Shown here: one piece after another, positions 1-32,000 of the stretch | How the letters are laid out: each line of letters begins with the position of its first letter | How positions within the stretch are numbered: the stretch's first letter is position 1 | Assembly: GCF_051201565.1 (NCBI RefSeq) | Contig: NZ_CP179200.1 | Location: 240,001 to 272,000, forward strand | DNA length: 32,000 nt | Origin: Pseudothioglobus sp. nBUS_23 | GTDB taxonomy: Bacteria > Pseudomonadota > Gammaproteobacteria > PS1 > Pseudothioglobaceae | Reading direction: 5' to 3' | Position numbers and translations under genes: made by a program | Notes under the pieces: model-generated | Seen by the model: only the letters and a program-made list of their open reading frames with translations | Told to the model about the DNA's origin: nothing | The model's database searches: none

Positions 1-618
1 CTGGATGTTGTCAAAGACAATAATGCACTGGATTTAGTTTCTGAAATCTTTGGTCCAAATATCACTCATTTGGGAAACAAAATAAATCTCAAGTTACCTG
101 GTGCTGGAACTGAAGTAAAGTTCCACCAAGACTTTCCTTTTGAGCCGCATTCAAATGAGGACATTATGACGGTGCTTTATTTTTTGGATGATGTGACTCT
201 GGATAATGGGCCATTAGAGGTCGTCCCAGGGACACATAACGGGCCACTCCACTCTCATTGGCAGAATGGTATTTTTACAGGTGCAGTGGATGACAAAGTT
301 ATGGAGTCGAACAAGAACAAAGCTATAAAGTGCACTGGAAAGGCGGGCTCTGCTTGCCTCATGCATTCAAAGTTACTGCATGGTTCAGCGCCGAATTTAT
401 CGGCCCATTCAAGATCTCTCTTTATTGTGACCTATAAGGCTGAGGATGCAGTAGCTCTTTCACCAAACCATCTCCCTAGTGAGCTTGTTGGAATGGTTGT
501 TAGAGGGAAAGAAACTGGAACTGTCAGGTGTACTAGTTACAGTATTGAGTTACCAGAGTACCCTAAAGAGGTCTCTTTCTTTGGCCAACAATCAAAAAGT
601 AAAAACATGGCAATGTAA
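1..618 (+). CDS. Fe(II)/2-oxoglutarate dioxygenase, phytanoyl-CoA dioxygenase (PhyH) family; 5'-partial
   Basis: Frame 1 is open from nt 1 (LDVVKDNNALDLVSEIFGPN...), so the TTG at 70 is not the real start. It has the HxD triad motif KFHQDF, LDNGPLEVVPGTH, and a distal His in LLHGSAPN, all typical of the PhyH fold. Confidence 0.8.
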   Translation: MDVVKDNNALDLVSEIFGPNITHLGNKINLKLPGAGTEVKFHQDFPFEPHSNEDIMTVLYFLDDVTLDNGPLEVVPGTHNGPLHSHWQNGIFTGAVDDKVMESNKNKAIKCTGKAGSACLMHSKLLHGSAPNLSAHSRSLFIVTYKAEDAVALSPNHLPSELVGMVVRGKETGTVRCTSYSIELPEYPKEVSFFGQQSKSKNMAM

Positions 619-703: not shown

Positions 704-1795
704 GTGATTGACTGGAATGATGGGAATAAAAGCTCACTCTTCAGCTACTGGCTCAGGGATAACTGCCAGATGCCTGAATCAAGAAACGAGAATAATGGCC
801 AAAGACTCTTTAGTGTTAAAGACTTACCTGAAGATGTATCCATAGAGAAGGCTTATAAGGATGAAAACGGAGATGTTTGTATCCTATTTCAGCCTGAAAA
901 TCACTTATCAGTCTTTACGCAAGATTGGCTACTCTCCAATTGCTATGACCTCAATGATCACTTTGATGACAGGAGCGAGAAACAAAAAATGCTCTGGCAA
1001 AAAAATAGTTTTGAGAATGGACTGCCACTAATTGACTATGATTTAATGAGCAAGGATGAGATAAAATTAAAAGCGCTTTGCTCCTTGAGAGACATAGGTT
1101 TTTTTGTTTTAATGGGTGTCCCGACAGTTGAAGGACAAGTATTAAAAGTCATCAGTGAAATGGGTTACACTCGGGAGACCAACTATGGAGCTCTGTTTGA
1201 GGTGAGAACTGAAGTCAACCCAAACAATCTTGCTTATACCAACCTAGGGCTTGGATCTCACACCGATAATCCATACCGAGACCCTGTCCCAACGGTGCAG
1301 CTGCTGCATTGTCTCGAGAGCTCTACCGAGGGCGGAGATTCAATCTTGGTTGACGGCTTTAAGGCCGCCTCAATTCTTCGTGATGAAAGCGAAGAGAGCT
1401 TTCTAACCTTGGCTAGTAACTGGATTAATTATCGATTTACTGATTCTAAAACTGATCTCCGCTCAAGGGTCCCGATGATCGAGTTAAATGACAATCATGA
1501 GATTATCAAGGTCAGATATAACAACCGATCAATCGATACAATTAATGTCCCAAAAGATAAAGTAAGGCTTTTTTATAAGGCCTACCGTCACTGGAGCGAG
1601 GTCATTGAGAGAGACGAATTGAAGATTCAATTCAAGCTTTCTGAGGGGGATTTAATGCTGTTCGATAACACTCGAGTTATGCACGCCAGAACTAAGTTTT
1701 CAAAAACTGGAAAGCGCCACCTACAAGGAGCCTATACAGATTTAGATGGACTTTACAGTCTCCTAAATACATTAGAAGATAAAAAAAATGACTGA
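704..1795 (+). CDS. gamma-butyrobetaine hydroxylase-like / TmpA-like Fe(II)/2OG dioxygenase (TauD/BBOX superfamily)
   Basis: BBOX-type N-terminal domain (LVIDWNDG...LFSYWLRDNC), HxD in GLGSHTDNPY, distal His in RVMHAR, and Arg in GKRHLQGAY. The in-frame coding signal continues upstream of GTG-704 to about 650, so the true start is probably earlier (see finding). Confidence 0.8.
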   Translation: MIDWNDGNKSSLFSYWLRDNCQMPESRNENNGQRLFSVKDLPEDVSIEKAYKDENGDVCILFQPENHLSVFTQDWLLSNCYDLNDHFDDRSEKQKMLWQKNSFENGLPLIDYDLMSKDEIKLKALCSLRDIGFFVLMGVPTVEGQVLKVISEMGYTRETNYGALFEVRTEVNPNNLAYTNLGLGSHTDNPYRDPVPTVQLLHCLESSTEGGDSILVDGFKAASILRDESEESFLTLASNWINYRFTDSKTDLRSRVPMIELNDNHEIIKVRYNNRSIDTINVPKDKVRLFYKAYRHWSEVIERDELKIQFKLSEGDLMLFDNTRVMHARTKFSKTGKRHLQGAYTDLDGLYSLLNTLEDKKND

Positions 1796-2351
1796 GATTA
1801 CTTCGCAAAATGTTGTAGACCTTATTGAAGATATTTTTCTTCGGCGCGGCGCTGAATCATACCTTGGTGAACAGGTCACGATGGCACAGCACATGCTTCA
1901 AACGGCCCAATGTGCTGAAGAGGCTGGCGCTGATGGTGCTCAAATAGTGGCAGCACTTCTTCATGATATAGGTCATTACAAAAACGAAATTCCTGAGTCA
2001 TCTTTGGCAAAGGGAGTGAACAACTTTCATGAGGAGGCAGGTGCAAATTTTCTGGAAGAATATTTCCCGGCTTCCGTTGTCGAACCGATTCGTCAGCATG
2101 TTGCAGCAAAACGTTATTTGTGTGCAGTTAAAGCAGATTATTTTGAGCGCCTATCTGCAGCCTCAGTTCATACTCTTAATCTTCAGGGTGGACCAATGAA
2201 TGAGAAAGAAATAGAAGAATTTGAAAATAATGATTATTTAGATCACTGCATAAATTTAAGATATTGGGATGAAGAGGGGAAAGATCCAGATAGAGAACAT
2301 CCTCCATTTTCATACTACCGCCCATTAATTGACTCTTTATTAAAAAATTAA
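1788..2351 (+). CDS. HD-domain protein with diiron-oxygenase ligand pattern (PhnZ/TmpB-like candidate)
   Basis: 187 aa with H35, H59-D60 (LLHDIGH), H81, H104 (RQHVAAKRY) and D161 (RYWDEEG). This is the H..HD..H..H..D six-ligand pattern. It overlaps the upstream dioxygenase by 8 nt (ATGACTGA). Confidence 0.7.
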   Translation: MTEITSQNVVDLIEDIFLRRGAESYLGEQVTMAQHMLQTAQCAEEAGADGAQIVAALLHDIGHYKNEIPESSLAKGVNNFHEEAGANFLEEYFPASVVEPIRQHVAAKRYLCAVKADYFERLSAASVHTLNLQGGPMNEKEIEEFENNDYLDHCINLRYWDEEGKDPDREHPPFSYYRPLIDSLLKN

Positions 2352-2508: not shown

Positions 2509-2973
2509 ATGAGTAACGGTAAATTATTAATAATAAATGGACCTGGATTATCAGATTTAAGTGATCATAATGAGGTAGCTAATGATGACTTATCTTTGTC
2601 TGTTATAGAGCAAAAATGCATTGAGACTTCAGGTAAATTTGGTCTCGAAGTGGATTTTCGTCAAAATGATGATGAATCTGAGCTTTTGAGTGGCTTGATT
2701 AATGATATTAATAATTTTGATGCTTTCATAATTAATCCAGCTGCACTCTCAAAATCATCAGTGATAAATTACGATGCTTTTAGTTCAGCAATTAGTGAAA
2801 TTAGCAATCAAAGTAAGCCAGTTATTGAAGTCCGTATAGAAAATATCTTCAAGCGGAATGTCAGTAAGCCTTTGCAAGTCCCTGAGAGTGGGTTAGGCTT
2901 TATTGGCGGACTTGGTAAGCATGGTTACGTGCTGGCTATTCGGTCAATTAACAAAAAACTAAGCAATCAATAA
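2509..2973 (+). CDS. type II 3-dehydroquinate dehydratase-like protein, catalytically degenerate paralog
   Basis: Collinear with AroQ (LLIINGP..., IINPAA, EVRIEN, GLGKHGY). The lid Arg/Tyr (REPxxYG) is absent, the His of AYTHTS is absent, and HISN is replaced by RIEN. Its stop directly abuts the ATG of the canonical aroQ. Confidence 0.65.
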   Translation: MSNGKLLIINGPGLSDLSDHNEVANDDLSLSVIEQKCIETSGKFGLEVDFRQNDDESELLSGLINDINNFDAFIINPAALSKSSVINYDAFSSAISEISNQSKPVIEVRIENIFKRNVSKPLQVPESGLGFIGGLGKHGYVLAIRSINKKLSNQ

Positions 2974-3417
2974 ATGAATATATACGTCATAAATGGTCCA
3001 AACATAAATCTTTTAGGTACGCGTGAGCCTGAAATTTATGGCAGAGATACTCTAGAAGGTATTGCTATAGATTGCCAAGAAAAAGCATCAAAAGATGGCC
3101 ATATTGTTAAATTTATGCAGTCTAACTATGAGGGCGAGATTGTAGAATGGATCCAAGATGCAATTATGCAGAAAGTAGATGCGATTGTAATCAATGCTGC
3201 TGCATATACTCATACATCAATCGCCATTCATGATGCATTAAAGTCATATTCAGGTTACAAGGTTGAGTTACACATTTCCAATCCACATCTGCGTGAATCA
3301 TTTCGCCACGTTTCTTTTATTTCTCCCGCAGTTGATGCAGTTATTGCTGGGTTGGGGGCTGAAGGTTACGGCCATGTTGTTGATCTATTATCAGAGTTAC
3401 CAATTAAGGTTAATTAA
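2974..3417 (+). CDS. aroQ: 3-dehydroquinate dehydratase, type II
   Basis: Canonical motifs are all present: VINGPNINLLGTREPEIYG, INAAAYTHTS, ELHISNPHLRESFRH, GLGAEGY. Length is 147 aa. Confidence 0.9.
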   Translation: MNIYVINGPNINLLGTREPEIYGRDTLEGIAIDCQEKASKDGHIVKFMQSNYEGEIVEWIQDAIMQKVDAIVINAAAYTHTSIAIHDALKSYSGYKVELHISNPHLRESFRHVSFISPAVDAVIAGLGAEGYGHVVDLLSELPIKVN

Positions 3418-4922
3418 AGAAGAATAGGGTAATATCTTCTAATTGAAGCCTCAATCTCATCCGATAAATAATTTGGATGGTGATTCAGTAATTCTTTGGC
3501 TTTAGTTTTGGCTCTGCTAAGATGATCTAGGGCTCCTTGCTCTTGCCATACAGTCGGCTCCTCTCGGTCAGCAATCGATGGATAAAAATAATCCCTTTCC
3601 ATAGATAGCATGGTTTCTGGTTGACCTAGAAAATGACCCGTATCACTGACGACAGATTGAATCGAATCAAACTCTAAACTTTGGTTATTGACCTCTATGC
3701 CTCTTATCATTCTATAAACAAGCGACAGCATCTCATCATCCATAACGAAGGCCTCAAATGATGCGCCCAATAAACTTGCCATCATTCCTGATGATTCATA
3801 GATCATATTTCCACCTGCTAAACCGCATGCCAAGGCAGTGAGGGCTTTCTCCATTCCCATTTGAGCATCGGGTGCTTTGGCATCGCTCATACTTGAAGCG
3901 CATCCCGAGGGTAAACCTAGAGAGTTCGACAACTGCGCCGATGCAGCATTGAGTAATGCCATCTCGCCGCTTCCTCCTCTGAAAGCGCCAGTTCTTAAAT
4001 CGATAGCAAGAGGCCAATTACCAAAAATCATTGGGTATCCAGGTTCAAAAACATTCGTCATTATGAGGGTTGAGAGAGTTTCAGCTAAGGTCAGTGAGAG
4101 TGACCCTGCGATTGGTCCAGGTGAGGTGGCTCCTGGCATGGCAGCAATAATATTATTAATCGGAACGCCTCTTTTCATGCAGGCTATGGCAACCATGACC
4201 GCATCTTCGCCAAATTTAAGAGGCGATATGACAGGACTGATATGAGCTTTGCAAAAAGGCTTTTCAGAAAACTTACCTTTCCCACCAAGAGCCATATCAA
4301 ACATGTCAATTATGGGATCAACATGTTCGTCAATATGAAAGCTCATTCCTACCGGCTTGGTTGTTCCTTTGAGAAGGGCGTAGGCGGTATTGACGTCAAG
4401 TTCATAGTTATCATGAACATCGGTTGCAATGCAGCAGCGTGTAAACCAACTTACATTTGGTAACTGATCTATCAGACGAGTAAAGTCATATAAGTCTGCT
4501 AAGGTCGAAGGACGATACTCTTCAGTATCAATATCTAAAGTCTGAACTGCTGCGCCTCCTGTACCGAAATATACTTTATCACCGCCAACGACTATGTCAT
4601 GCTTTGATTCTCGACCGAAGAATGTAAATTCTTTGCAGGAGGATGAGATGATGCTTTCAACCATTGATGCTGGGAAACATAATCTATTCTGAGAGTTAAT
4701 TTTTGCTCCATGTTCTAAGGCCTGCTTTTCAAGAACTTTTGGAACGTCGGTCATTCCAATTTGCTCTAGAATCCGTAATGACTCGTTATAAATTGTTTTG
4801 ACTTGAGAGTCTGAGAGTGGCTTGTATTGACCTCCAGACTGACCAGGGGGGCATGGGTTGATTTCAGGAGCCTTGGCTCTCTGGGCTTGTTTAGCTGCTC
4901 GTGCTGATTGTCTTCTTGCCAT
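3414..4922 (-). CDS. trimethylamine methyltransferase (MttB) superfamily protein, non-pyrrolysine; quaternary-amine methyltransferase candidate
   Basis: 502 aa uninterrupted ORF with no in-frame TAG. It has the Arg/Ala-rich N-terminus (MARRQSARAAKQAQRAK) typical of proteobacterial MttB homologs and a TIM-barrel-length body. An AGGAA RBS is present, and it lies 14 nt downstream of the DMGDH-family gene. Confidence 0.8.
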   Translation of the reverse strand: MARRQSARAAKQAQRAKAPEINPCPPGQSGGQYKPLSDSQVKTIYNESLRILEQIGMTDVPKVLEKQALEHGAKINSQNRLCFPASMVESIISSSCKEFTFFGRESKHDIVVGGDKVYFGTGGAAVQTLDIDTEEYRPSTLADLYDFTRLIDQLPNVSWFTRCCIATDVHDNYELDVNTAYALLKGTTKPVGMSFHIDEHVDPIIDMFDMALGGKGKFSEKPFCKAHISPVISPLKFGEDAVMVAIACMKRGVPINNIIAAMPGATSPGPIAGSLSLTLAETLSTLIMTNVFEPGYPMIFGNWPLAIDLRTGAFRGGSGEMALLNAASAQLSNSLGLPSGCASSMSDAKAPDAQMGMEKALTALACGLAGGNMIYESSGMMASLLGASFEAFVMDDEMLSLVYRMIRGIEVNNQSLEFDSIQSVVSDTGHFLGQPETMLSMERDYFYPSIADREEPTVWQEQGALDHLSRAKTKAKELLNHHPNYLSDEIEASIRRYYPILL

Positions 4923-4936
4923 CGATTATTCCTAGG

Positions 4937-7372
4937 TTACGCTAGTATTCTACTATAGCTTTCATCGTAGGGTCCAAATGGAATGACCTCAACAGAGACC
5001 AATTCTCCTAATAAATCTAAATGCATTTGTGTCCCCTCTTTTGATTTGTCAATGTTTACAAATGCATAGGCAAGGTTGAGATTAACTCTGTGACCCCACT
5101 CACCAGATGTAATTGTTCCAACTACTTTTCCACTCTCCATTAGCGATGCTCCACCATATGCTGGGGCATGTTTGCATGCTACCTTTAGACAGACAAGTTT
5201 TTGATTTGGGCTTTGTTTAATTCTATTTTTTAATGCCTTTTTGCCAATAAAGTTATCTTTCTTTAGATTCACGAAGCGGTCAAGGCCAGTTTCAAAAGGA
5301 TCAAACTCAGTGATTAAATCGGACTTCCATCCCAGAAACCCTTTTTCCATTCTCATAGACTCTACCGCTCTGGACCCAAAGAGTTTTATTCCAAACTCTT
5401 CTCCTGCTTCAGTGAGTGCTAGGTATGCGGCATACAGAGATTCATTGGGTACATGCACTTCATAAGCGAGCTCACCAGAGAAACTCACTGACATTACGGT
5501 GGCCGGAGAAAAGCCAATGAAACATTCTCTTACACTGAGCCATGGAAATGACTCCTTGCTCCAATCTTCGCGACTGCATTTGGAGAGGACTTCTCTCGCT
5601 TTTGGTCCAGCTAAAAGGAGTATTGTTTGGTCATTTGTTAGGCTTTTGATTGAAGTATCTTCATCATCTTTTAATTGCTGAACTAGCCAATCCATATCGT
5701 GAAACTCAGAGGCCGCAGCTGAGCCATACCACATTCTTTTTGGGCCACGGTCTGAAGCTGGAATGTTGGATATAGTGGCTTCACTTTTTATCATTCCAAA
5801 CTCATTAAGAAGGTAACCTAAACCAACTCGGCCTGATTTCTGGGTAATGTTGCCGCAAAACATTCGGTCAACAAAACTGTTGGCATCTGAGCCAGTAATT
5901 TCAAATCGATTAAAGCCATTCACCTCGGTAAGTCCTACATTATTTTGGACATTTTTTACTTCGTTTGCGATAACATCAAATGCTTCATCAAAGTGAAACG
6001 AGAGAGAAGGGTGGAAGTCTTTTGAGGGCTTAATATATTCAACACGCTCCCATCCATTAATCACAGTAAATTCTGCATTTGCATTTGCCATGACTGGAGT
6101 TAGAGGAGTAGTTTTGGCAGGGCGAGCTGCGGGGCGGTGCTCGTGTGGAAAGTGAAAACGAAATTCGTTTTGATAGTCTTCGATAGCCTTTAACGAAGTC
6201 ATTTCAACATTTGTGTGAGAGGTAAATCTTCGAGGATCCAGGCACCACGTATCATAACATGCTTCACCATGAACAATTTGTTGAGCAAGGAGCCAGCCAT
6301 GCCCGCCACCTTCACCAAGGCCTGCTCTTAGACCTATGATGCAGAATGCGTTTTCTTTTCCAGGAATTTTTCCAACCAGTGGGGCTCCATCAATTGTATA
6401 AGTAATTGGGCCATTAATGACACTTCTTATTCCAGCATTCATTAACGCAGGCATTCGATCAAATGCTCCCTCTAATACATCTGTAACTCTCTCTAAATCA
6501 TCTGGACAAAGAGCATTGACAAAGTTTGGATCAATCCCATCCATTCCCCATGGTTTACAATTCTGTTCATAGAATCCAATCAAAAGTCCATTCTTATCTT
6601 GTCGACAATAATAGTCAGATATTGGGCACCTTAAAAGAGGCATTCGGCGACCTGAATCTATAATCTCTTGAATATCTTCGGTCAGAAAATACTGATGCTC
6701 CATTGAGGCTACTGGATGATGAACACCCATCATTGCGCCAACCTCATTAACCCTATATCCGCAGGCATTTACAACAACATCACAATCAACCCCACCATTT
6801 TTGGTGGTTACTTTCCAGGTCCCATCCTGGTATTGCTCTAGAGCAGTTACTGGAGTATTTGTGTAGACCTCAGCGCCAGCCTGTCGGGCTTTTCGCGCCA
6901 AAGAGTGACATAACTGATATGGATCTATATCACCATCTAATGGATCCCACAACCCACCAATTAAGTTTTTTGTTGAAATTAATGGGTGACGTCGATGACA
7001 TTCTTTGGCATCTATTACTTCAAAATTAACATCCATGCCCCGAGCCATTGAGGCGAAGTGATGATAACCTTGCATTTGCTCTTTGGTATTGGCAAGCCTT
7101 ATTCCACCATCACCATGATTATAGTTAATTGGATAATCAGGGTCGTCAGCCAATTCTTTGTATAGATTAATGGAATGTGTTTTTAAACCAACCATTGTTT
7201 GATTCATTCCAAAATTAGTAACCTGAGCTGCTGAGTGCCAAGTCGTACCACTAGTCAAATCATTTCGCTCAAGAAGAACAACATCTGTCCAACCCTCTTG
7301 GGTCAGATGATAAAGGGTCGAGCAGCCTGCAATACCACCGCCAATGACAACAACCTTTGTTCTAGTTTTCAT
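4937..7372 (-). CDS. dimethylglycine/sarcosine dehydrogenase family flavoprotein (DAO FAD domain fused to GcvT-type folate-binding domain)
   Basis: 811 aa. N-terminal VVVIGGGIAGCS Rossmann motif, flavinylation-type His in SGTTWHSAAQ, and a C-terminal aminomethyltransferase-like region. AGGAG RBS. Confidence 0.85.
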   Translation of the reverse strand: MKTRTKVVVIGGGIAGCSTLYHLTQEGWTDVVLLERNDLTSGTTWHSAAQVTNFGMNQTMVGLKTHSINLYKELADDPDYPINYNHGDGGIRLANTKEQMQGYHHFASMARGMDVNFEVIDAKECHRRHPLISTKNLIGGLWDPLDGDIDPYQLCHSLARKARQAGAEVYTNTPVTALEQYQDGTWKVTTKNGGVDCDVVVNACGYRVNEVGAMMGVHHPVASMEHQYFLTEDIQEIIDSGRRMPLLRCPISDYYCRQDKNGLLIGFYEQNCKPWGMDGIDPNFVNALCPDDLERVTDVLEGAFDRMPALMNAGIRSVINGPITYTIDGAPLVGKIPGKENAFCIIGLRAGLGEGGGHGWLLAQQIVHGEACYDTWCLDPRRFTSHTNVEMTSLKAIEDYQNEFRFHFPHEHRPAARPAKTTPLTPVMANANAEFTVINGWERVEYIKPSKDFHPSLSFHFDEAFDVIANEVKNVQNNVGLTEVNGFNRFEITGSDANSFVDRMFCGNITQKSGRVGLGYLLNEFGMIKSEATISNIPASDRGPKRMWYGSAAASEFHDMDWLVQQLKDDEDTSIKSLTNDQTILLLAGPKAREVLSKCSREDWSKESFPWLSVRECFIGFSPATVMSVSFSGELAYEVHVPNESLYAAYLALTEAGEEFGIKLFGSRAVESMRMEKGFLGWKSDLITEFDPFETGLDRFVNLKKDNFIGKKALKNRIKQSPNQKLVCLKVACKHAPAYGGASLMESGKVVGTITSGEWGHRVNLNLAYAFVNIDKSKEGTQMHLDLLGELVSVEVIPFGPYDESYSRILA

Positions 7373-7492
7373 ATGAACTCCTATTTATTTTTATATTTTT
7401 AACCTTTTTTTTTCGAAAAAGTTGTTAAAAAACTAAACATACTGTTCGAATATATTTGACAGGAATATGATAGGATGGGTTAAACTTGCAAA
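7373..7492. promoter_or_regulatory. divergent control region between the DMGDH-mttB operon and lysR
   Basis: Two palindromic TTCGAA hexamers (7412-7417, 7445-7450) lie 33 bp apart. Candidate leftward promoter: TTCGAA-N16-TATAAA (7417->7390). Candidate rightward promoter: TTGACA (7456-7461)-N17-GTTAAA (7479-7484), ending only ~8 nt before ATG-7493. Confidence 0.3.
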
Positions 7493-8389
7493 ATGAAATT
7501 CAGATCTTTTGACTCATTTAGAGTATTTGAAAAAGTTGCTCAACTCGAGAGTATTACTCTAGCAGCAGAAGCATTAAATTTATCAAAAAGTGCCATTAGT
7601 TATCAGATTACTAAGCTTGAGAACGAGCTTGGATTTTTACTTTTTGATCGTGTTAATTCAAGATTGGTATTAACAACTAAAGGTCGAAGATTATGGTACG
7701 TTGCTGAATCATCATTGAATCAAATTGAGAGAGAGATTAACCTGCTTCGTGGTGAGAATTCAGGGACAGTCAAAGTAGGAATTGTCTCTTCATTTGCTTC
7801 AAGATGGCTATCACCAAGATTAACTAATTTTTTTGAGCAATGTCCCGATTTAGGTCTAAAAATTGAGTCTATTAATTCAATAGATGAGTTTAGTAATGCT
7901 GATTTTTCATTAGCCATATTATGGGGAGATTCCTGGAGTGATTTTGAGTATGAATTATTAATGCCCACTTCATCATTCGTTCTTGGTAACAGGAAAATCT
8001 ATGAACAAACTAGATCCATTACGTTAGAGGAAGCAATGAAAAAAATTCCTTTGCTTAATGACGGTTTTTATGGAGGTAATGGAGGAATGCAGGCTTGGCA
8101 TAGGCAAGCTAATCTTGAATATAATCCATCAAAGAGTAGCCTCAAAATTACTGATGCCTCTACAAGACTTCAGGCAGTTGTTGATGGACAAGGTATTGCC
8201 TTGTGGGATGAGTTAGTAAATGAAGAGATTGAGTCTGGAAAATTATTTTATATTTCTGATATTATGCTTCCAGGTTTTGGTTATCACCTGGTATATAAAA
8301 ATAAAAATTCATTATCTATTGAAGAAAAAAATTTTTGTAAATGGATCAAGAGTGAGCTTCCGAAACAAACTAATAGTAAAACTCTATAG
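7493..8389 (+). CDS. LysR-family transcriptional regulator
   Basis: N-terminal wHTH (FEKVAQLESITLAAEALNLSKSAISYQITKLENELGFLLFDR) followed by a LysR substrate-binding domain. It is divergent from the catabolic operon. Confidence 0.9.
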   Translation: MKFRSFDSFRVFEKVAQLESITLAAEALNLSKSAISYQITKLENELGFLLFDRVNSRLVLTTKGRRLWYVAESSLNQIEREINLLRGENSGTVKVGIVSSFASRWLSPRLTNFFEQCPDLGLKIESINSIDEFSNADFSLAILWGDSWSDFEYELLMPTSSFVLGNRKIYEQTRSITLEEAMKKIPLLNDGFYGGNGGMQAWHRQANLEYNPSKSSLKITDASTRLQAVVDGQGIALWDELVNEEIESGKLFYISDIMLPGFGYHLVYKNKNSLSIEEKNFCKWIKSELPKQTNSKTL

Positions 8390-12288: not shown

Positions 12289-14847
12289 TTAGCTTTGGAG
12301 AATTACTTCGAGTGCAATATTAGATGAAGACTCTTGATAATCTGCAATCTGATCAAAGTTTAGGTATTGATAAATTTCACCAGACAAAGGCTCAATATCT
12401 TTCATTAACGATAGGTACTCCTCAGGTGTAGGAATGTAGCCTAATTTTGCTGAGATGGCAGCAACCTCTGCAGAAGCCAAGAAAACGTCACTGTTGTCAC
12501 CGAGCCTATTTGGGAAGTTCCTTGTGGACGTAGATACAACTGATGCACCTTCTTCTACCCTAGCTTGATTACCCATACAGAGGGAGCAGCCAGGGACCTC
12601 AGTTCTGTCTGTCAGGCGCTCAAATGTCTCATAAATTCCTTCTGCCCTTAACTGTTTTTCATCCATCCTTGTGGGCGGTACTACCCACAAAACAGTATTC
12701 AGCTCAGATTTATCTTTGAGAAGCTGAGCTGCTGCTCTAAAGTGCCCAATGTTAGTCATACAAGACCCAATAAAGACTTCATCGATAGAGGTTTTGGCTA
12801 CTGATGAAAGAAGTCTGACATCATCTGGATCATTAGGACATGCCAATATAGGCTCTTTAATTTCTGCTAGATCTATTTCAATAACTTCTGCATACTCGCA
12901 ATCTTCATCAGCCTCAAGAAGCTCTGGATTATCAAGCCATTTTTTCATGTCCTGGATCCTCTTTGCTATTGTTTTTTTATCATCATAGCCAGAGTCAATC
13001 ATAGAGCCAAGAAGTGTAATGTTTGAGTTGAGGTATTCCTCAATAGGCTCTTTATTTAGTTTGACAGTGCAGCCATTAGCTGAACGCTCAGCAGTAGCAT
13101 CTGCAAGTTCAAAGGCTTGTTCAACCTTAAGGTCACCGAGCCCTTCAATTTCCAGAACGCGGCCAGAGAAAATATTCTTTTTGTTGGATTTATCAACAGT
13201 AAGTAGTCCTTTTTGGATAGCAACATAAGGAATTGCATTGACCAGATCTCTTAGAGTAATTCCCGGCTGCATTTCACCTTTGAATCTGACTAACACAGAC
13301 TCAGGCATGTCAAGAGGCAGTACGCCAATGGACGCTCCAAATGCGACGAGTCCAGAGCCTGCTGGAAAGCTAATTCCTATTGGGAAGCGTGTGTGTGAAT
13401 CTCCGCCAGTGCCAACTGAGTCAGGAAGAAGCATACGATTCAGCCACGAGTGAATAATGCCGTCCCCAGGTTTGAGAGAGACGCCACCCCGGGAATGCAT
13501 AAAATCTGGAAGTGTATGTTGAAGTTCTAGGTCAATCGGTTTTGGATAAGCAGCTGTATGACAAAAACTCTGCATCACAAGGTCTGCCGAAAACCCTAAA
13601 CAGGCTAACTCTTTTAGTTCATCACGAGTCATTGCACCTGTTGTGTCTTGCGATCCAACGGTACTCATTCGGGGCTCACAATACGTTCCAGGTCGAATAC
13701 CCTTAACGCCACAAGCTTTACCCACAATTTTTTGAGCCAAGGTAAATCCTAATTCGCTATTCTTTGGGTCAACCGGACGAAGAAAGACATCACTGACATC
13801 AAGCCCTAGTTCAGATCTCGTTTTGTCGGTGAGACCTCTACCAATAATTAGAGGAATCCTGCCGCCTGCCCTGACTTCATCTGGCATCGTGCTTGGAGCA
13901 AGATCAAACTTTGAGACAACTTTTCCAGACGCATCTTTAATAACCCCCTCATATGGAAATATTGTAATTTCATCCCCCATATTCAGTTCAGAAACATCGC
14001 ACTGTATTGGAAGCGCCCCAGAATCCTCTGCAGTGTTAAAAAATATTGGAGCAATCTTTCCACCAAGCACTATTCCACCACTATTTTTGTTTGGGATATA
14101 GTCTATTGGTTCTCCCATATGCCATAACACTGAGTTAATGGCTGATTTTCTTGAAGAGCCAGTACCCACTACATCGCCTACATAGGCTAAAGGAAGACCT
14201 TTTTGCTTAAGTTCTTCAATTTTTTCAAGAGGCCTATCCATTTTTTTGATGAGCATCGCTTTCGCATGAAGCGGAATATCTGGTCTTGACCAGGCCTCAG
14301 TGGCTGGAGACAGGTCATCTGTATTGGTTTCACCATCTACGCGAAAAACAGTCACATTGATGCTTTCAGGAAGAGGCTCTTTCGATGTAAACCAATCTGC
14401 CGATGCCCATGAATCAACAATTTTTTTGGCGTACGAGTTGCTTGAGGACTTTTCTAGGATTTGTTGATGAGCTTCGTAAATTAGAATAGTGTGCGAGAGC
14501 GCCTCACAGGCTGCCTCAGCAGTTTCCTCATCATCAAGAAGGTCGATTAACGATGCAATACTATAGCCACCAAGCATCGTTCCTAATAGAAAAGTAGCGT
14601 GTTTTTTTGTTATGGCATTGCATGTTTCTTCACCCTTAGCGACACTAGTGAGAAAGCCTGCTTTGACGTATGCTGCCTCATCAACCCCTGGCGGCACTCT
14701 GTGCGTTAGAAGATTCAAGTAAAAATCATCATCATTGCCCTCTAAAAGGCATTCAACTACTGATTTTGTTTGTTTGGCGTTTAGCGCCAAAGGTGGAAGA
14801 TTTTCTGACTCTCTTTCATCGCAATGCTTTAGGTAAGCTTCTTTCAT
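12289..14847 (-). CDS. acnB: aconitate hydratase B (bifunctional aconitase 2 / 2-methylisocitrate dehydratase)
   Basis: The homologous N-terminus begins at [26 protein letters not shown] (ATG 14847), giving 852 aa. Cluster-ligand motifs IGSCMTN and GCSLCMGNQ are present. The 43 extra residues in the track ORF are AT-rich promoter sequence and would overlap purB. Confidence 0.93.
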
Positions 14848-14908
14848 AACTGTACTGAATATAAGGTGATTAAATAAATAGAGTATAATTTTATCCTTTT
14901 TGATATGA

Positions 14909-16306
<1,398 letters not shown>

Positions 16307-16362: not shown

Positions 16363-16944
16363 ATGGTTAAGATTAGACTAGCCCGAGGTGGAGCCAAGAA
16401 AAACCCTTTTTATTCGATTGTAGCAACAGACTCTAGAAAGAGAAGAGACAGTGGTTACATTGAGCGTATTGGATACTTTAATCCTGTTGCTCGCGGACAA
16501 GAAGTCAGGCTTCAACTCGAAGAAGACAGACTGTCATACTGGATTTCTCAGGGAGCACAGATTTCAGATCGCGTCAAGCAGCTTGTTAAGGAATATAAAG
16601 ACCCATCTATTCGTGAAAAGCAGTTAGCAATGCAGGCAGCTAAAGCTGATGAAAAGGCTAAAAAGATTGCTGCAGAAGAAAAAGCAAAGGCAGATTTAGA
16701 GGCTAAAGAGGCTGCTGAGGCCGCAGCTCAAGAAGCGGCAGCAGAAGAAGCCGCAGCAGCAGAAGCAGAAGCAGAAGCTCCAGCAGAAGAAGCTCCAGCA
16801 GCAGAAGCAGAAGCAGAAGCTCCAGCAGCAGAAGCAGAAGCTCCAGCAGAAGAAGCTCCAGCAGAAGAAGCTCCAGCAGAAGAAGCAGAAGCTCCAGCAG
16901 AAGAAGCCGCAGAAAAGCCAGCTGAAGAGCCTGAAGAAAAATAA
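16363..16944 (+). CDS. rpsP: 30S ribosomal protein S16 with long C-terminal Ala/Glu/Pro-rich extension
   Basis: The first ~80 aa ([41 protein letters not shown]...) form canonical S16. The remaining ~113 aa are low-complexity KA/EA/AEEAP repeats. AAGGAG RBS, with a TATAAT at 16313-16318. Confidence 0.92.
16735..16912 (+). repeat. in-frame imperfect tandem repeat (15/18-bp units GCAGAAGAAGCTCCA / GCAGAAGCAGAAGCTCCA) inside rpsP
   Basis: Visible directly in the sequence. It encodes AEEAP/AEAEAP units and also creates the spurious antisense ORF 16728..16955. Confidence 0.85.
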
Positions 16945-27682: not shown

Positions 27683-28237
27683 TCATCTTATAAATCTTGT
27701 TGGGGTAACTATGCCGTCAACTGGAACATCCCAAGGCTGAGCGGTCAAGAGATCAATCTCTTGAGAGTCGAAAGCCAGCCCAAAGAGTTTTGGAACTCTA
27801 AATTTTTTTATTTTATTATGGAAGCTGAGAGTTTTGTCGTAAAAACCACCACCCATACCTAGGCGATTTTTATGTTTATCAAAACCAACAAGTGGCATAA
27901 GAATAATGTCCATTCTGTGAGCTCCTTGAAGAGGGCTAAAGATTGGTTCTTCAATACCAAATCTGTTTTTTTTGAATAATTTACCCATCTTTGCAAACTT
28001 TAGCTTTTCCCCTGCAAGTATTGGTAAATAGACAAAATACCCTTGCTTCAATAAGAATTTTATTGTGTCAGCTGTTTCGATTTCACCATCATTTGGAATA
28101 AAAATTGCTATATGCTTTGCATTTCTAAAAATGGCCCGCTTTTGGCATTGGTAAAGAAGCTGCCTGCCAAACTTTTTTCTCGAAGGCTGGTCAATCGATC
28201 TTCTGATTTTTCTGAGCTCTTTTCTTAGTTCTTTCAT
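27683..28237 (-). CDS. ygfA: 5-formyltetrahydrofolate cyclo-ligase
   Basis: MKELRKELRKIRRSI..., MGGGFYDKTL, and a DVPVDGIVT-type C-terminus. It lies immediately downstream of a 6S RNA gene, as in enterobacteria. Confidence 0.85.
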   Translation of the reverse strand: MKELRKELRKIRRSIDQPSRKKFGRQLLYQCQKRAIFRNAKHIAIFIPNDGEIETADTIKFLLKQGYFVYLPILAGEKLKFAKMGKLFKKNRFGIEEPIFSPLQGAHRMDIILMPLVGFDKHKNRLGMGGGFYDKTLSFHNKIKKFRVPKLFGLAFDSQEIDLLTAQPWDVPVDGIVTPTRFIR

Positions 28238-30883: not shown

Positions 30884-32000
30884 ATGAAAAATAAAGCACA
30901 AGTAGTTGTCATTGGTGGTGGTGTTGTAGGTGCAGGAACTCTCTATCATTTAGCTAAGAAAGGGTGGACTGACGTTGTTTTAGTTGAGCGTAAGGATTTA
31001 ACATCCGGATCCACTTGGCATGCAGCTGGATTACTGCCATTATTCAATATGAGCTACTCGGTCGGAAAACTTCACCAATATTCAGTCGACTTTTATCACG
31101 ATCTTGAAAAAGAAACAGGGATGAACGTTGGGTTTAGTGTTGTTTCTAATATTCGTCTTGCTAATTCTCAAGATAGAATGGATGAGTATAAATATTACTC
31201 AGGAGTTGGAAGTACTGTGGGTGTAGATGTTAAATTTCTGACCCCAGATGAAGTTAAAGAGGTTTGGCCACTTTGTAATACTGAAGGACTAGTTGGCGCA
31301 ATACAGCATCCAGACGATGGTTATATTCAACCAGCAGATTTAACCCAAGCTCTTTGCAAGGGCGCAAGAAATAGGGGTGCTGAAATATATGAGCATACTT
31401 TGGTAGAAGGCATTCAGCAGCAAAAGGATCAAAGCTGGGTTGTTTCAACTGACAAGGGCGATATTTCATGTCAACATGTTGTCTCTTGTACTGGGAGTTT
31501 TGCAAGAAAAACAGGAGAGATGGTTGGCCTTGATGTTCCTGTCATTCCAGTTGAACACCAATTCTTAGTTACAGAGCAGCACCCAGAAATCATGGAAAGA
31601 AAAAAACAAGGTTTGCCTGAAATGGCCGTTCTTCGTGAATCTGATTCAGCATATTACTTGCGAGAAGAGGCTGGAGGAATGATTCTGGGTATTTATGAAA
31701 AAGGAGCGCCAGCGTGTTATGTTGATGGTCCAAGTAAAGATTGCCAATATGAATTATTTAATGGCGAATTGGACCGCATTATGCCGCATATTGATCGCTG
31801 CATTAGTCGAGTGCCCGCCTTTGGAGAGGTTGGAATCAAAGATATCTATAATGGTGCTATCGCATACACCCCAGATGGTAATCCAATAGTTGGTCCAGCG
31901 CCTGGCTTAAAGAATTTCTGGCTTAACGAAGGCCATAGTTTTGGAATAACTGCCGCTGGCGGTGCTGGTTGGCAATTAGCTGAGTGGATTGTTGACGGAG
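30884..32000 (+). CDS. dimethylglycine/sarcosine dehydrogenase family flavoprotein, 3'-partial (runs off window)
   Basis: Absent from the ORF track because there is no stop. I translated it by hand without stops to nt 32000: MKNKAQVVVIGGGVVGAGTLYHLAKKGWTDVVLVERKDLTSGSTWHAAGLLPLFN...PVIPVEHQFLVTE...GHSFGITAAGGAGWQLAEWIVDG. Track ORFs 31254..31505(-) and 31695..31889(+) lie inside it. Confidence 0.88.
   Translation, partial: MKNKAQVVVIGGGVVGAGTLYHLAKKGWTDVVLVERKDLTSGSTWHAAGLLPLFNMSYSVGKLHQYSVDFYHDLEKETGMNVGFSVVSNIRLANSQDRMDEYKYYSGVGSTVGVDVKFLTPDEVKEVWPLCNTEGLVGAIQHPDDGYIQPADLTQALCKGARNRGAEIYEHTLVEGIQQQKDQSWVVSTDKGDISCQHVVSCTGSFARKTGEMVGLDVPVIPVEHQFLVTEQHPEIMERKKQGLPEMAVLRESDSAYYLREEAGGMILGIYEKGAPACYVDGPSKDCQYELFNGELDRIMPHIDRCISRVPAFGEVGIKDIYNGAIAYTPDGNPIVGPAPGLKNFWLNEGHSFGITAAGGAGWQLAEWIVDG

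Follow-up and report, generated by a model that had tools for sequence, protein, structure and literature searches.

A divergent MttB homolog coupled to a dimethylglycine dehydrogenase-type flavoenzyme in Pseudothioglobus: a candidate two-step N-demethylation module served by a corrinoid protein encoded elsewhere

Introduction

The closest described counterpart of the genes considered here is the MtgBCD(E) system of Ruegeria pomeroyi, in which knockouts revealed that one core MtgC/MtgD serves MtgB genes scattered over the genome (Mausz et al., PNAS 2025, PMC12478193). The same study counted up to seven scattered paralogs of the PF06253 (MTTB) family per genome, proposed that other methylated compounds feed the same MtgC/MtgD core via these paralogs, and named SUP05/Candidatus (Ca.) Thioglobus among the carriers of the aerobic MtgBCD system. 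Here we examine two adjacent genes in a 32,000-nucleotide stretch of the chromosome of Pseudothioglobus sp. nBUS_23 (contig NZ_CP179200.1, genome positions 240001 to 272000; the window in what follows), which encode a non-pyrrolysine MttB-superfamily methyltransferase and a flavoenzyme with the architecture of dimethylglycine dehydrogenase (DMGDH). The methyltransferase had been presented in a first-pass annotation as an orphan whose methyl acceptor was an open question. The orphan label does not survive inspection of the whole genome, which holds a complete MtgC cluster 95 kb from the window. We consider it fairly likely that the pair removes N-methyl groups from a quaternary ammonium compound in successive steps and relies for this on cobalamin machinery whose genes lie elsewhere in the genome; the sulfonate class of the substrate is the least certain part of this proposal.

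Two further characterized systems are pertinent. The glycine betaine site of Desulfitobacterium hafniense MtgB has been established by structure and mutagenesis (Picking et al., JBC 2026, PMC13080624): Y97 and F356 engage in cation-pi interactions with the substrate, whose carboxylate is held by R312 and H348. Activity is undetectable in the R312L variant, H348E retains only a trace at glycine betaine concentrations of at least 1 M, and R312 is conserved in MtcB, MtpB, MthB, and MtyB (PMC13080624). From sulfonate catabolism comes CuyC, a cysteinolate racemase described as the marker of D-cysteinolate degradation (Liu et al., JBC 2025, PMC12814064).

The source genome is a single contig of 1.79 Mb with 37.8% G+C, rated 99.9% complete, and the closest public relatives of the window are metagenome-assembled genomes (MAGs) of Ca. 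Thioglobus and Piscirickettsiaceae in the SUP05 group. For comparison, we used 80 loci from Gamma- and Alphaproteobacteria with orthologs of the window methyltransferase (62 to 98% identity); the open reading frames (ORFs) in their neighborhoods were called, and all neighboring ORFs were then clustered. Gene co-occurrence was assessed in 30 other genomes with an ortholog of the window methyltransferase (the pair-holding genomes) and in a class sample, for which 299 additional genomes of the class were evenly drawn, each at least 90% complete.

A deep MttB clade with a rebuilt substrate pocket

The methyltransferase gene (window 3414 to 4922, minus strand) encodes a protein of 502 residues, which was analyzed with Pfam, NCBIfam, and PDB alignments. 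It matches PF06253 over residues 4 to 497 with 338 bits against a cut-off of 25 bits, which places it squarely in the family. With the pyrrolysine equivalog TIGR02369, it reaches 345 bits, under the 525-bit cut-off of that model. Neither an internal stop nor an amber codon interrupts the ORF, and the residue aligned with the pyrrolysine of Methanosarcina barkeri MttB (7xcl) is Met345; the earlier description of a non-pyrrolysine MttB homolog located 14 nucleotides (nt) downstream of a DMGDH-type gene is thus borne out. Closeness to the characterized enzymes was gauged by bit scores to PDB chains as a proxy; by this measure, the closest solved structure is that of MtgB (9yce/2qne; 209 bits, residues 32 to 497), and M. 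barkeri MttB scores 169 bits. The methionine at the pyrrolysine position, together with the subthreshold TIGR02369 score, rules out the protein as a trimethylamine methyltransferase, and without pyrrolysine it would not be expected to activate a tertiary amine.

The residues that bind the substrate in MtgB are all changed. In the HMMER alignment to 9yce, Y97, R312, H348, and F356 of MtgB correspond to G123, G340, E376, and L384 of the window protein, and these four columns are invariant in all 80 orthologs. The same G/G/E/L pocket is seen in one paralog of this genome, located at genome 1621171, versus the four "typical" MttB paralogs, all of which retain the arginine and three of which also retain the histidine. 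The paralog encoded beside MtgC keeps the tyrosine, arginine, and histidine, and it scores 413 bits to MtgB against 209 for the window protein, which is only about 25% identical to the MtgB-like paralogs of its own genome. With the pocket replaced, methionine at position 345, and the lower score to MtgB, the window protein is predicted to be neither a trimethylamine nor an MtgB-type glycine betaine enzyme. If glycine betaine were its substrate, it would not be bound as in MtgB. We accordingly place it, on the strength of its sequence, in a different, deep, and uncharacterized clade of the MttB superfamily.

The flavoenzyme partner and its operon

The gene immediately upstream (window 4937 to 7372, minus strand) encodes a protein of 811 residues in which Pfam recognizes DAO, FAO_M, GCV_T, and GCV_T_C domains, i.e., a flavin adenine dinucleotide (FAD)-dependent amine oxidoreductase joined to a GcvT-type domain that binds folate. 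It aligns over its full length with rat DMGDH (4p9s; 515 bits) and retains the histidine that binds FAD covalently (TSGTTWHSAAQV, residues 40 to 51), as expected of the DMGDH/sarcosine dehydrogenase family. A second DMGDH-type paralog of 841 residues starts at window 30884 and runs off the window edge (window 30884 to 31999, plus strand; genome 270884 to 273409); a 5-formyltetrahydrofolate cyclo-ligase gene lies near it (window 27683 to 28237, minus strand). This paralog displays the canonical motif TSGSTWHAAGLL, so the difference in the flavinylation motif between the two window paralogs that had been noted from the sequence holds. It extends to the ortholog group of the flavoenzyme, in which SAAQV or AAAQV follows the histidine versus AAGL. 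In line with the original suggestion, this deviation from the canonical paralog indicates that the flavoenzyme probably acts on a substrate other than dimethylglycine.

A spacer of 14 nt (cctaggaataatcg, window 4923 to 4936, minus strand) separates the two genes and supplies the MttB gene with a ribosome-binding site, AGGA; an AGGAG site precedes the start of the DMGDH-type gene. A terminator scan returned no terminator-like site between the genes, and we agree with the first reading that they are probably cotranscribed. An AT-rich divergent control region of 120 nt (window 7373 to 7492) lies between this operon and a gene for a LysR-family regulator (window 7493 to 8389, plus strand) that is GcvA-like, with a score below the model cut-off. 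As a promoter scan around the pair yielded matches at chance level only, we claim no promoter. About 35 of the 80 loci likewise have a LysR gene that diverges from the pair, in several of them standing between the pair and cuyA/cuyC; the product of the window LysR gene is probably the local regulator of the pair.

The association of the two genes is strongly conserved. An ortholog of the flavoenzyme (50 to 95% identity) directly adjoins the MttB ortholog in 72 of the 80 loci. Usually the flavoenzyme gene is upstream on the same strand, and most orthologous loci have a 4-nt overlap instead of a spacer; in Kiloniellaceae, Pelagibius, and Rhodobacterales the two genes are divergent. The present genome contains six PF06253 MttB paralogs and five DMGDH-type paralogs, and three of the six MttB genes abut a DMGDH-type gene, each such pair with different accessory genes. 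One of the other pairs (genome 1621171 to 1625159, plus strand) is preceded by an aldehyde dehydrogenase gene; the third (genome 1701437 to 1705473, minus strand) forms an operon with genes for a GMC oxidoreductase, a SnoaL-like protein, and a creatinase/prolidase-like M24 protein. These two pairs probably each act on a different methylated amine. The simplest reading of such adjacency is that the MttB protein and the flavoenzyme catalyze successive steps of one pathway.

The surroundings of the pair within the window raise the question of glycine betaine as the starting compound. Homologs of TmpA (window 704 to 1795, plus strand; 321 bits to 6npb) and TmpB (window 1788 to 2351, plus strand; 191 bits to 6npa versus 121 to PhnZ), whose genes overlap by 8 nt, are predicted to perform oxidative carbon-phosphorus cleavage of 2-(trimethylammonio)ethylphosphonate, yielding glycine betaine and phosphate. 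Upstream of TmpA, a PhyH-family dioxygenase gene enters from the left window edge (window 1 to 618) and may encode a PhnY-like hydroxylase. The TmpA and TmpB genes converge on the pair, which could then constitute a second glycine betaine route: the MttB protein would convert the betaine supplied by TmpA/TmpB to dimethylglycine, and the flavoenzyme would take this to sarcosine. The full-length homology of the flavoenzyme to DMGDH, the GcvA-like divergent regulator, and the presence of a serine hydroxymethyltransferase (SHMT) gene after the pair in 14 loci would all accord with such a route. However, it would have to operate with all four MtgB ligands replaced, some at positions where substitution abolishes MtgB activity, in a genome that already possesses ligand-keeping paralogs with far greater similarity to MtgB, including the one beside MtgC, and a more canonical DMGDH paralog. 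Moreover, tmpA and tmpB were not found adjoining the orthologs in the other loci; because this linkage is not conserved, we keep a substrate defined by tmpA/tmpB as a minor rival only, and we judge the glycine betaine route to be distinctly unlikely.

Corrinoid machinery encoded in trans

A Pfam scan of every window ORF of at least 100 residues detected no B12-binding, Pterin_bind, or RACo domain, in agreement with the earlier remark that no corrinoid, MtgA-, or RamA-type gene lies in the 32 kb. The whole-genome search for corrinoid and methylcorrinoid:tetrahydrofolate (THF) methyltransferase genes that had been recommended is more revealing. It recovered exactly one B12-binding protein, MtgC (genome 144572 to 145276; B12-binding_2 plus B12-binding domains), at the head of a cluster at genome 144.5 to 151.7 kb, 95 kb upstream of the window, with the order MtgC-DUF1638-MetF2-MtgD-GFA-RamA-MttB-Fhs. 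Herein MetF2 is a methylene-THF reductase paralog (167 bits to 7xg9), MtgD the pterin-binding methyltransferase, RamA the RACo/RamA-type activase, and Fhs formate-THF ligase; MtgC, MtgD, RamA, DUF1638, and MetF2, all within genome 144.5 to 150.1 kb, make up the aerobic MtgBCD-type gene set. As far as presence goes, MtgC and MtgD elsewhere in the genome supply what the first-pass annotation had named as grounds for giving up the orphan reading.

Co-occurrence reinforces this picture in every set tested. A stand-alone MtgC ortholog (64 to 90% identity) is present in all 30 pair-holding genomes and is never adjacent to the pair; in four closed chromosomes, it lies 0.45 to 1.3 Mb away. In the class sample, where MtgC orthologs were called at 65% identity or more, 17 of the 299 genomes have MttB-family genes, and MtgC occurs in exactly the same 17 and in none of the other 282; one other genome has a distant corrinoid protein only, 39% identical. 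These counts overstate independence because the compared genomes are related. A corrinoid gene in cis is found at 0 of the 80 loci.

A further feature that may connect these proteins is an Arg-rich N-terminal tail (MARRQSARAAKQAQRAK...) that precedes the TIM-barrel domain of the window MttB protein. All six MttB paralogs of the genome begin with such an Arg-rich segment, MtgD and RamA terminate in poly-Arg, and the N terminus of MtgC contains a strongly acidic stretch. Among the orthologs, the 32 residues before the catalytic domain have a median of seven basic residues and one acidic residue, and an RR or RxR motif is found in the tail in 74 of 78. Hence, we postulate that the Arg-rich tail probably docks on the acidic N terminus of MtgC. 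Together, homology and co-occurrence point to MtgC as the methyl carrier that the window MttB protein would use in trans. The missing corrinoid partner is a feature that published work and the genome already explain, and we do not present it as new.

The lack of a corrinoid gene in cis at all 80 loci and the tight coupling of the two genes, with a 4-nt overlap in many loci, might alternatively be taken to mean that no corrinoid is involved, the methyl group being handed directly to THF on the folate domain of the adjacent flavoenzyme. We regard this as extremely improbable. To our knowledge, all characterized members of the MttB family use Co(I), and folate domains of the GcvT type capture formaldehyde or iminium equivalents rather than methyl cations; both points count against a direct transfer. 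Given the complete co-occurrence with MtgC (30/30; 17/17 versus 0/282) and the putative Arg-rich docking tail that the MttB protein shares with MtgD and RamA, we reject a cobalamin-independent mechanism; the window flavoenzyme is not an alternative methyl acceptor.

The search for cobalamin synthesis and uptake genes that had also been proposed found neither CobS nor CbiC in the genome. At genome 927147 to 929265 (minus strand), it did find a cobalamin riboswitch that scores 33.8 bits, more than the gathering score, and immediately precedes a TonB-dependent receptor gene, whose product is the only BtuB-like match among TonB-dependent receptors in this genome. On these two grounds, we regard the organism as a probable B12 auxotroph dependent on uptake of the cofactor. 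Classical MetH is absent from the genome, and the demethylases are the only visible use of B12, apart from two proteins with homocysteine S-methyltransferase domains.

A link to cysteinolate and sulfonate degradation

Clustering of the neighboring ORFs in the 80 loci brings out several recurrent partner genes. In 25 loci, a DegT-family CuyC ortholog that is 43 to 79% identical to the Thioglobus copy is encoded within 10 kb of the pair, an identity that reaches the level by which CuyC is delimited in PMC12814064. CuyA and HpsN are encoded within 10 kb of the pair in 10 and 8 loci, respectively, and all eight of the HisD-like neighbors bear the sulfonate-recognition motif GRY[AS]H of HpsN. In a Ca. 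Thioglobus MAG (L012), a single operon encodes DMGDH-MttB-CuyA-CuyC-CuyB-HpsN; its CuyA and CuyB score 539 bits against a cut-off of 450 and 270 bits against a cut-off of 190. Other loci present variations on the theme, such as the operon CuyA-CuyC-DMGDH-MttB (L050), a DMGDH-HpsN-CuyC operon divergent from the MttB gene (L065), and an OpuAC-ABC-ABC-CuyA-CuyC-CuyB operon a few genes downstream of the pair (L011). A binding protein of the quaternary-amine OpuAC type is encoded beside cuyC in nine alphaproteobacterial loci. At the genome level, 28 of the 30 pair-holding genomes encode CuyC, and in the class sample it is found in all 7 genomes with a strict ortholog of the window MttB protein versus 5 of the 292 others. 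The combination of an importer and a methyltransferase of quaternary-amine type, a demethylase for tertiary or secondary amines, and the enzymes leading from cysteinolate to sulfite suggests an N-methylated, cysteinolate-like sulfobetaine. We tentatively propose, as one possibility, that the pair provides a B12-dependent route for an undescribed marine N-methylated cysteinolate-type "sulfobetaine," which would be imported by the OpuAC-type system and passed on to CuyC, HpsN, and CuyA.

Several observations weigh against this proposal. None of the papers in the library searched mentions an N-methylated cysteinolate, and for this reason we predict the sulfobetaine rather than identify it. In the present genome, the cuy and hps genes are dispersed and do not adjoin the pair: CuyC (67% identical to the L012 protein) is encoded at 1.588 Mb, HpsN, with the motif GRYAH, at 1.592 Mb inside a 2,3-dihydroxypropane-1-sulfonate (DHPS)/suyAB-type cluster, and a CuyA-like protein, with 407 bits under the 450-bit cut-off, at 0.959 Mb; CuyB was not found in this genome. 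A sulfonate would be expected to need a basic ligand, although the conserved arginine of the pocket is lost and a glutamate gained, and we identified no replacement basic residue in the pocket of the window MttB protein. The neighbors of the pair also include the SHMT genes of the 14 loci mentioned above, choline sulfatase in four to five alphaproteobacterial loci, and, in the window itself, the glycine betaine-making tmpA/tmpB about 1 kb from the end of the MttB gene. The kinship of the compared genomes, noted above for the MtgC counts, applies here as well.

As to the HpsN cluster itself (genome 1590428 to 1595772, plus strand), HpsN is preceded by a small ORF and an altronate dehydratase-family protein (SuyAB-like) and followed by a short-chain dehydrogenase/reductase and a Zn-dependent alcohol dehydrogenase; the CuyC ortholog lies 3 kb upstream of the cluster on the opposite strand.

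Some of the same evidence could be read in favor of choline or another nonsulfonated N-methylated amino alcohol, which the MttB protein would convert to dimethylethanolamine for further demethylation by the flavoenzyme. The loss of the carboxylate-binding arginine and the gain of a glutamate suit a hydroxyl or neutral tail; choline sulfatase and its LysR regulator adjoin the pair in Pelagibius-type loci; OpuAC-type binding proteins are encoded close by; and in L011 a betaine-aldehyde-dehydrogenase-like gene stands ahead of the pair. However, choline sulfatase is confined to one lineage, and the recurrent partners are sulfonate specific, as judged from the GRY[AS]H motif in 8/8 and the scores of CuyA and CuyB above their equivalog cut-offs. 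The strong genome-level co-occurrence with CuyC argues in the same direction, and we hold a choline-type substrate to be unlikely.

Proposed pathway

Taking these findings together, we propose the following scheme for the sequential demethylation module. In the first step, the MttB-family enzyme would bind a trimethylammonium substrate in its TIM barrel and pass one methyl group to the Co(I) of MtgC, the single stand-alone corrinoid protein. MtgD would then transfer this methyl group from MtgC to THF, and MetF2 would oxidize the resulting methyl-THF to methylene-THF; RamA and DUF1638 are envisaged as re-reducing oxidized cobalamin, which would have to be imported because the genome lacks the synthesis genes. 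In the second step, the tertiary amine product would be oxidatively demethylated by the cotranscribed DMGDH-type flavoenzyme, whose folate domain would capture the one-carbon (C1) unit as 5,10-methylene-THF. Both steps would thus deliver methylene-THF, so that both methyl groups would join the same folate pool. The substrate is the least certain element; the best-supported candidates are amino-alcohol sulfonates with N-methyl groups, N,N,N-trimethylcysteinolate being one example. After demethylation, such a compound would be channeled through CuyC, HpsN, and CuyA to pyruvate, ammonium, and sulfite.

Other features of the window

Tandem genes for type II 3-dehydroquinases (window 2509 to 2973 and 2974 to 3417, both plus strand) lie between the TmpB gene and the pair. 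The first is strongly divergent, with 68 bits to PF01220 versus 175 for the second, and the second gene and the convergent MttB gene overlap by 4 nt at the stop of the latter. Farther away, the ribosomal protein S16 ORF (window 16363 to 16944, plus strand) has 193 codons, of which only residues 8 to 68 form the S16 domain; the remainder includes a long C-terminal extension. In the longest ORF for AcnB (window 12289 to 14976, minus strand), about 44 residues precede the family match, and the ORF shares 35 nt with the beginning of the divergently oriented adenylosuccinate lyase gene (window 14942 to 16306, plus strand); translation of AcnB probably starts further downstream.

Significance

What is new here is a highly conserved MttB clade with a rebuilt pocket and a near-obligatory flavoenzyme partner, the substrate of which is probably not a betaine. 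This clade is tied genetically to cysteinolate and sulfonate genes that were described in 2024 and 2025, and the sulfonate hypothesis that follows is concrete and testable. The pocket substitutions offer a defined contrast to MtgB for studying substrate selection in the superfamily. If a methylated sulfonate osmolyte is indeed the substrate, this would add a new compound class to the marine dissolved-organic sulfur and nitrogen pool and would lengthen the list of ocean processes known to depend on scarce vitamin B12. It would also furnish SUP05 bacteria and many sponge- or alga-associated Proteobacteria with pyruvate, ammonium, folate-bound C1 units, and sulfite, the last being an organic sulfite source for the sulfur-oxidizing SUP05 bacteria.

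Comparison with known systems

The window flavoenzyme has in common with mammalian DMGDH (4P9S/5L46) the four-domain architecture and the flavinylation histidine, but it differs in the residues after that histidine and belongs to a set of five paralogs within a 1.8-Mb genome. M. barkeri MttB (7XCL) belongs to the same superfamily as the window MttB protein, and the loop near the pyrrolysine position is similar in the two (SDAK-PD-Q-G-EK motif); unlike the archaeal gene, that of the window has no amber codon, and Met345 takes the pyrrolysine position. The likeness to D. hafniense MtgB (2QNE/9YCE, PMC13080624) is that of a TIM-barrel quaternary-amine:corrinoid methyltransferase without pyrrolysine, whereas the pocket positions Y97/R312/H348/F356 are G/G/E/L in the window protein, with the loss of the widely conserved R312.

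In many genomes, orthologs of the D-cysteinolate cluster CuyC-HpsN-CuyB-CuyA (PMC12814064) are encoded beside the orthologs of the pair or in the same operon. The published pathway, however, starts from unmethylated D-cysteinolate and includes no demethylases and no betaine-type importer (PMC12814064). The greatest overall resemblance is to MtgBCD(E) of R. pomeroyi DSS-3, a glycine betaine demethylase and split methionine synthase (PMC12478193), whose components PF06253, MtgC, MtgD, RamA, DUF1638, and MetF2 are also encoded here. In both organisms the genes are scattered, a single MtgC stands alongside several MttB paralogs, and there is no classical MetH. The window MttB protein differs from that system in falling in a different deep clade, in its replaced pocket, and in being consistently paired with a DMGDH-type enzyme of its own.

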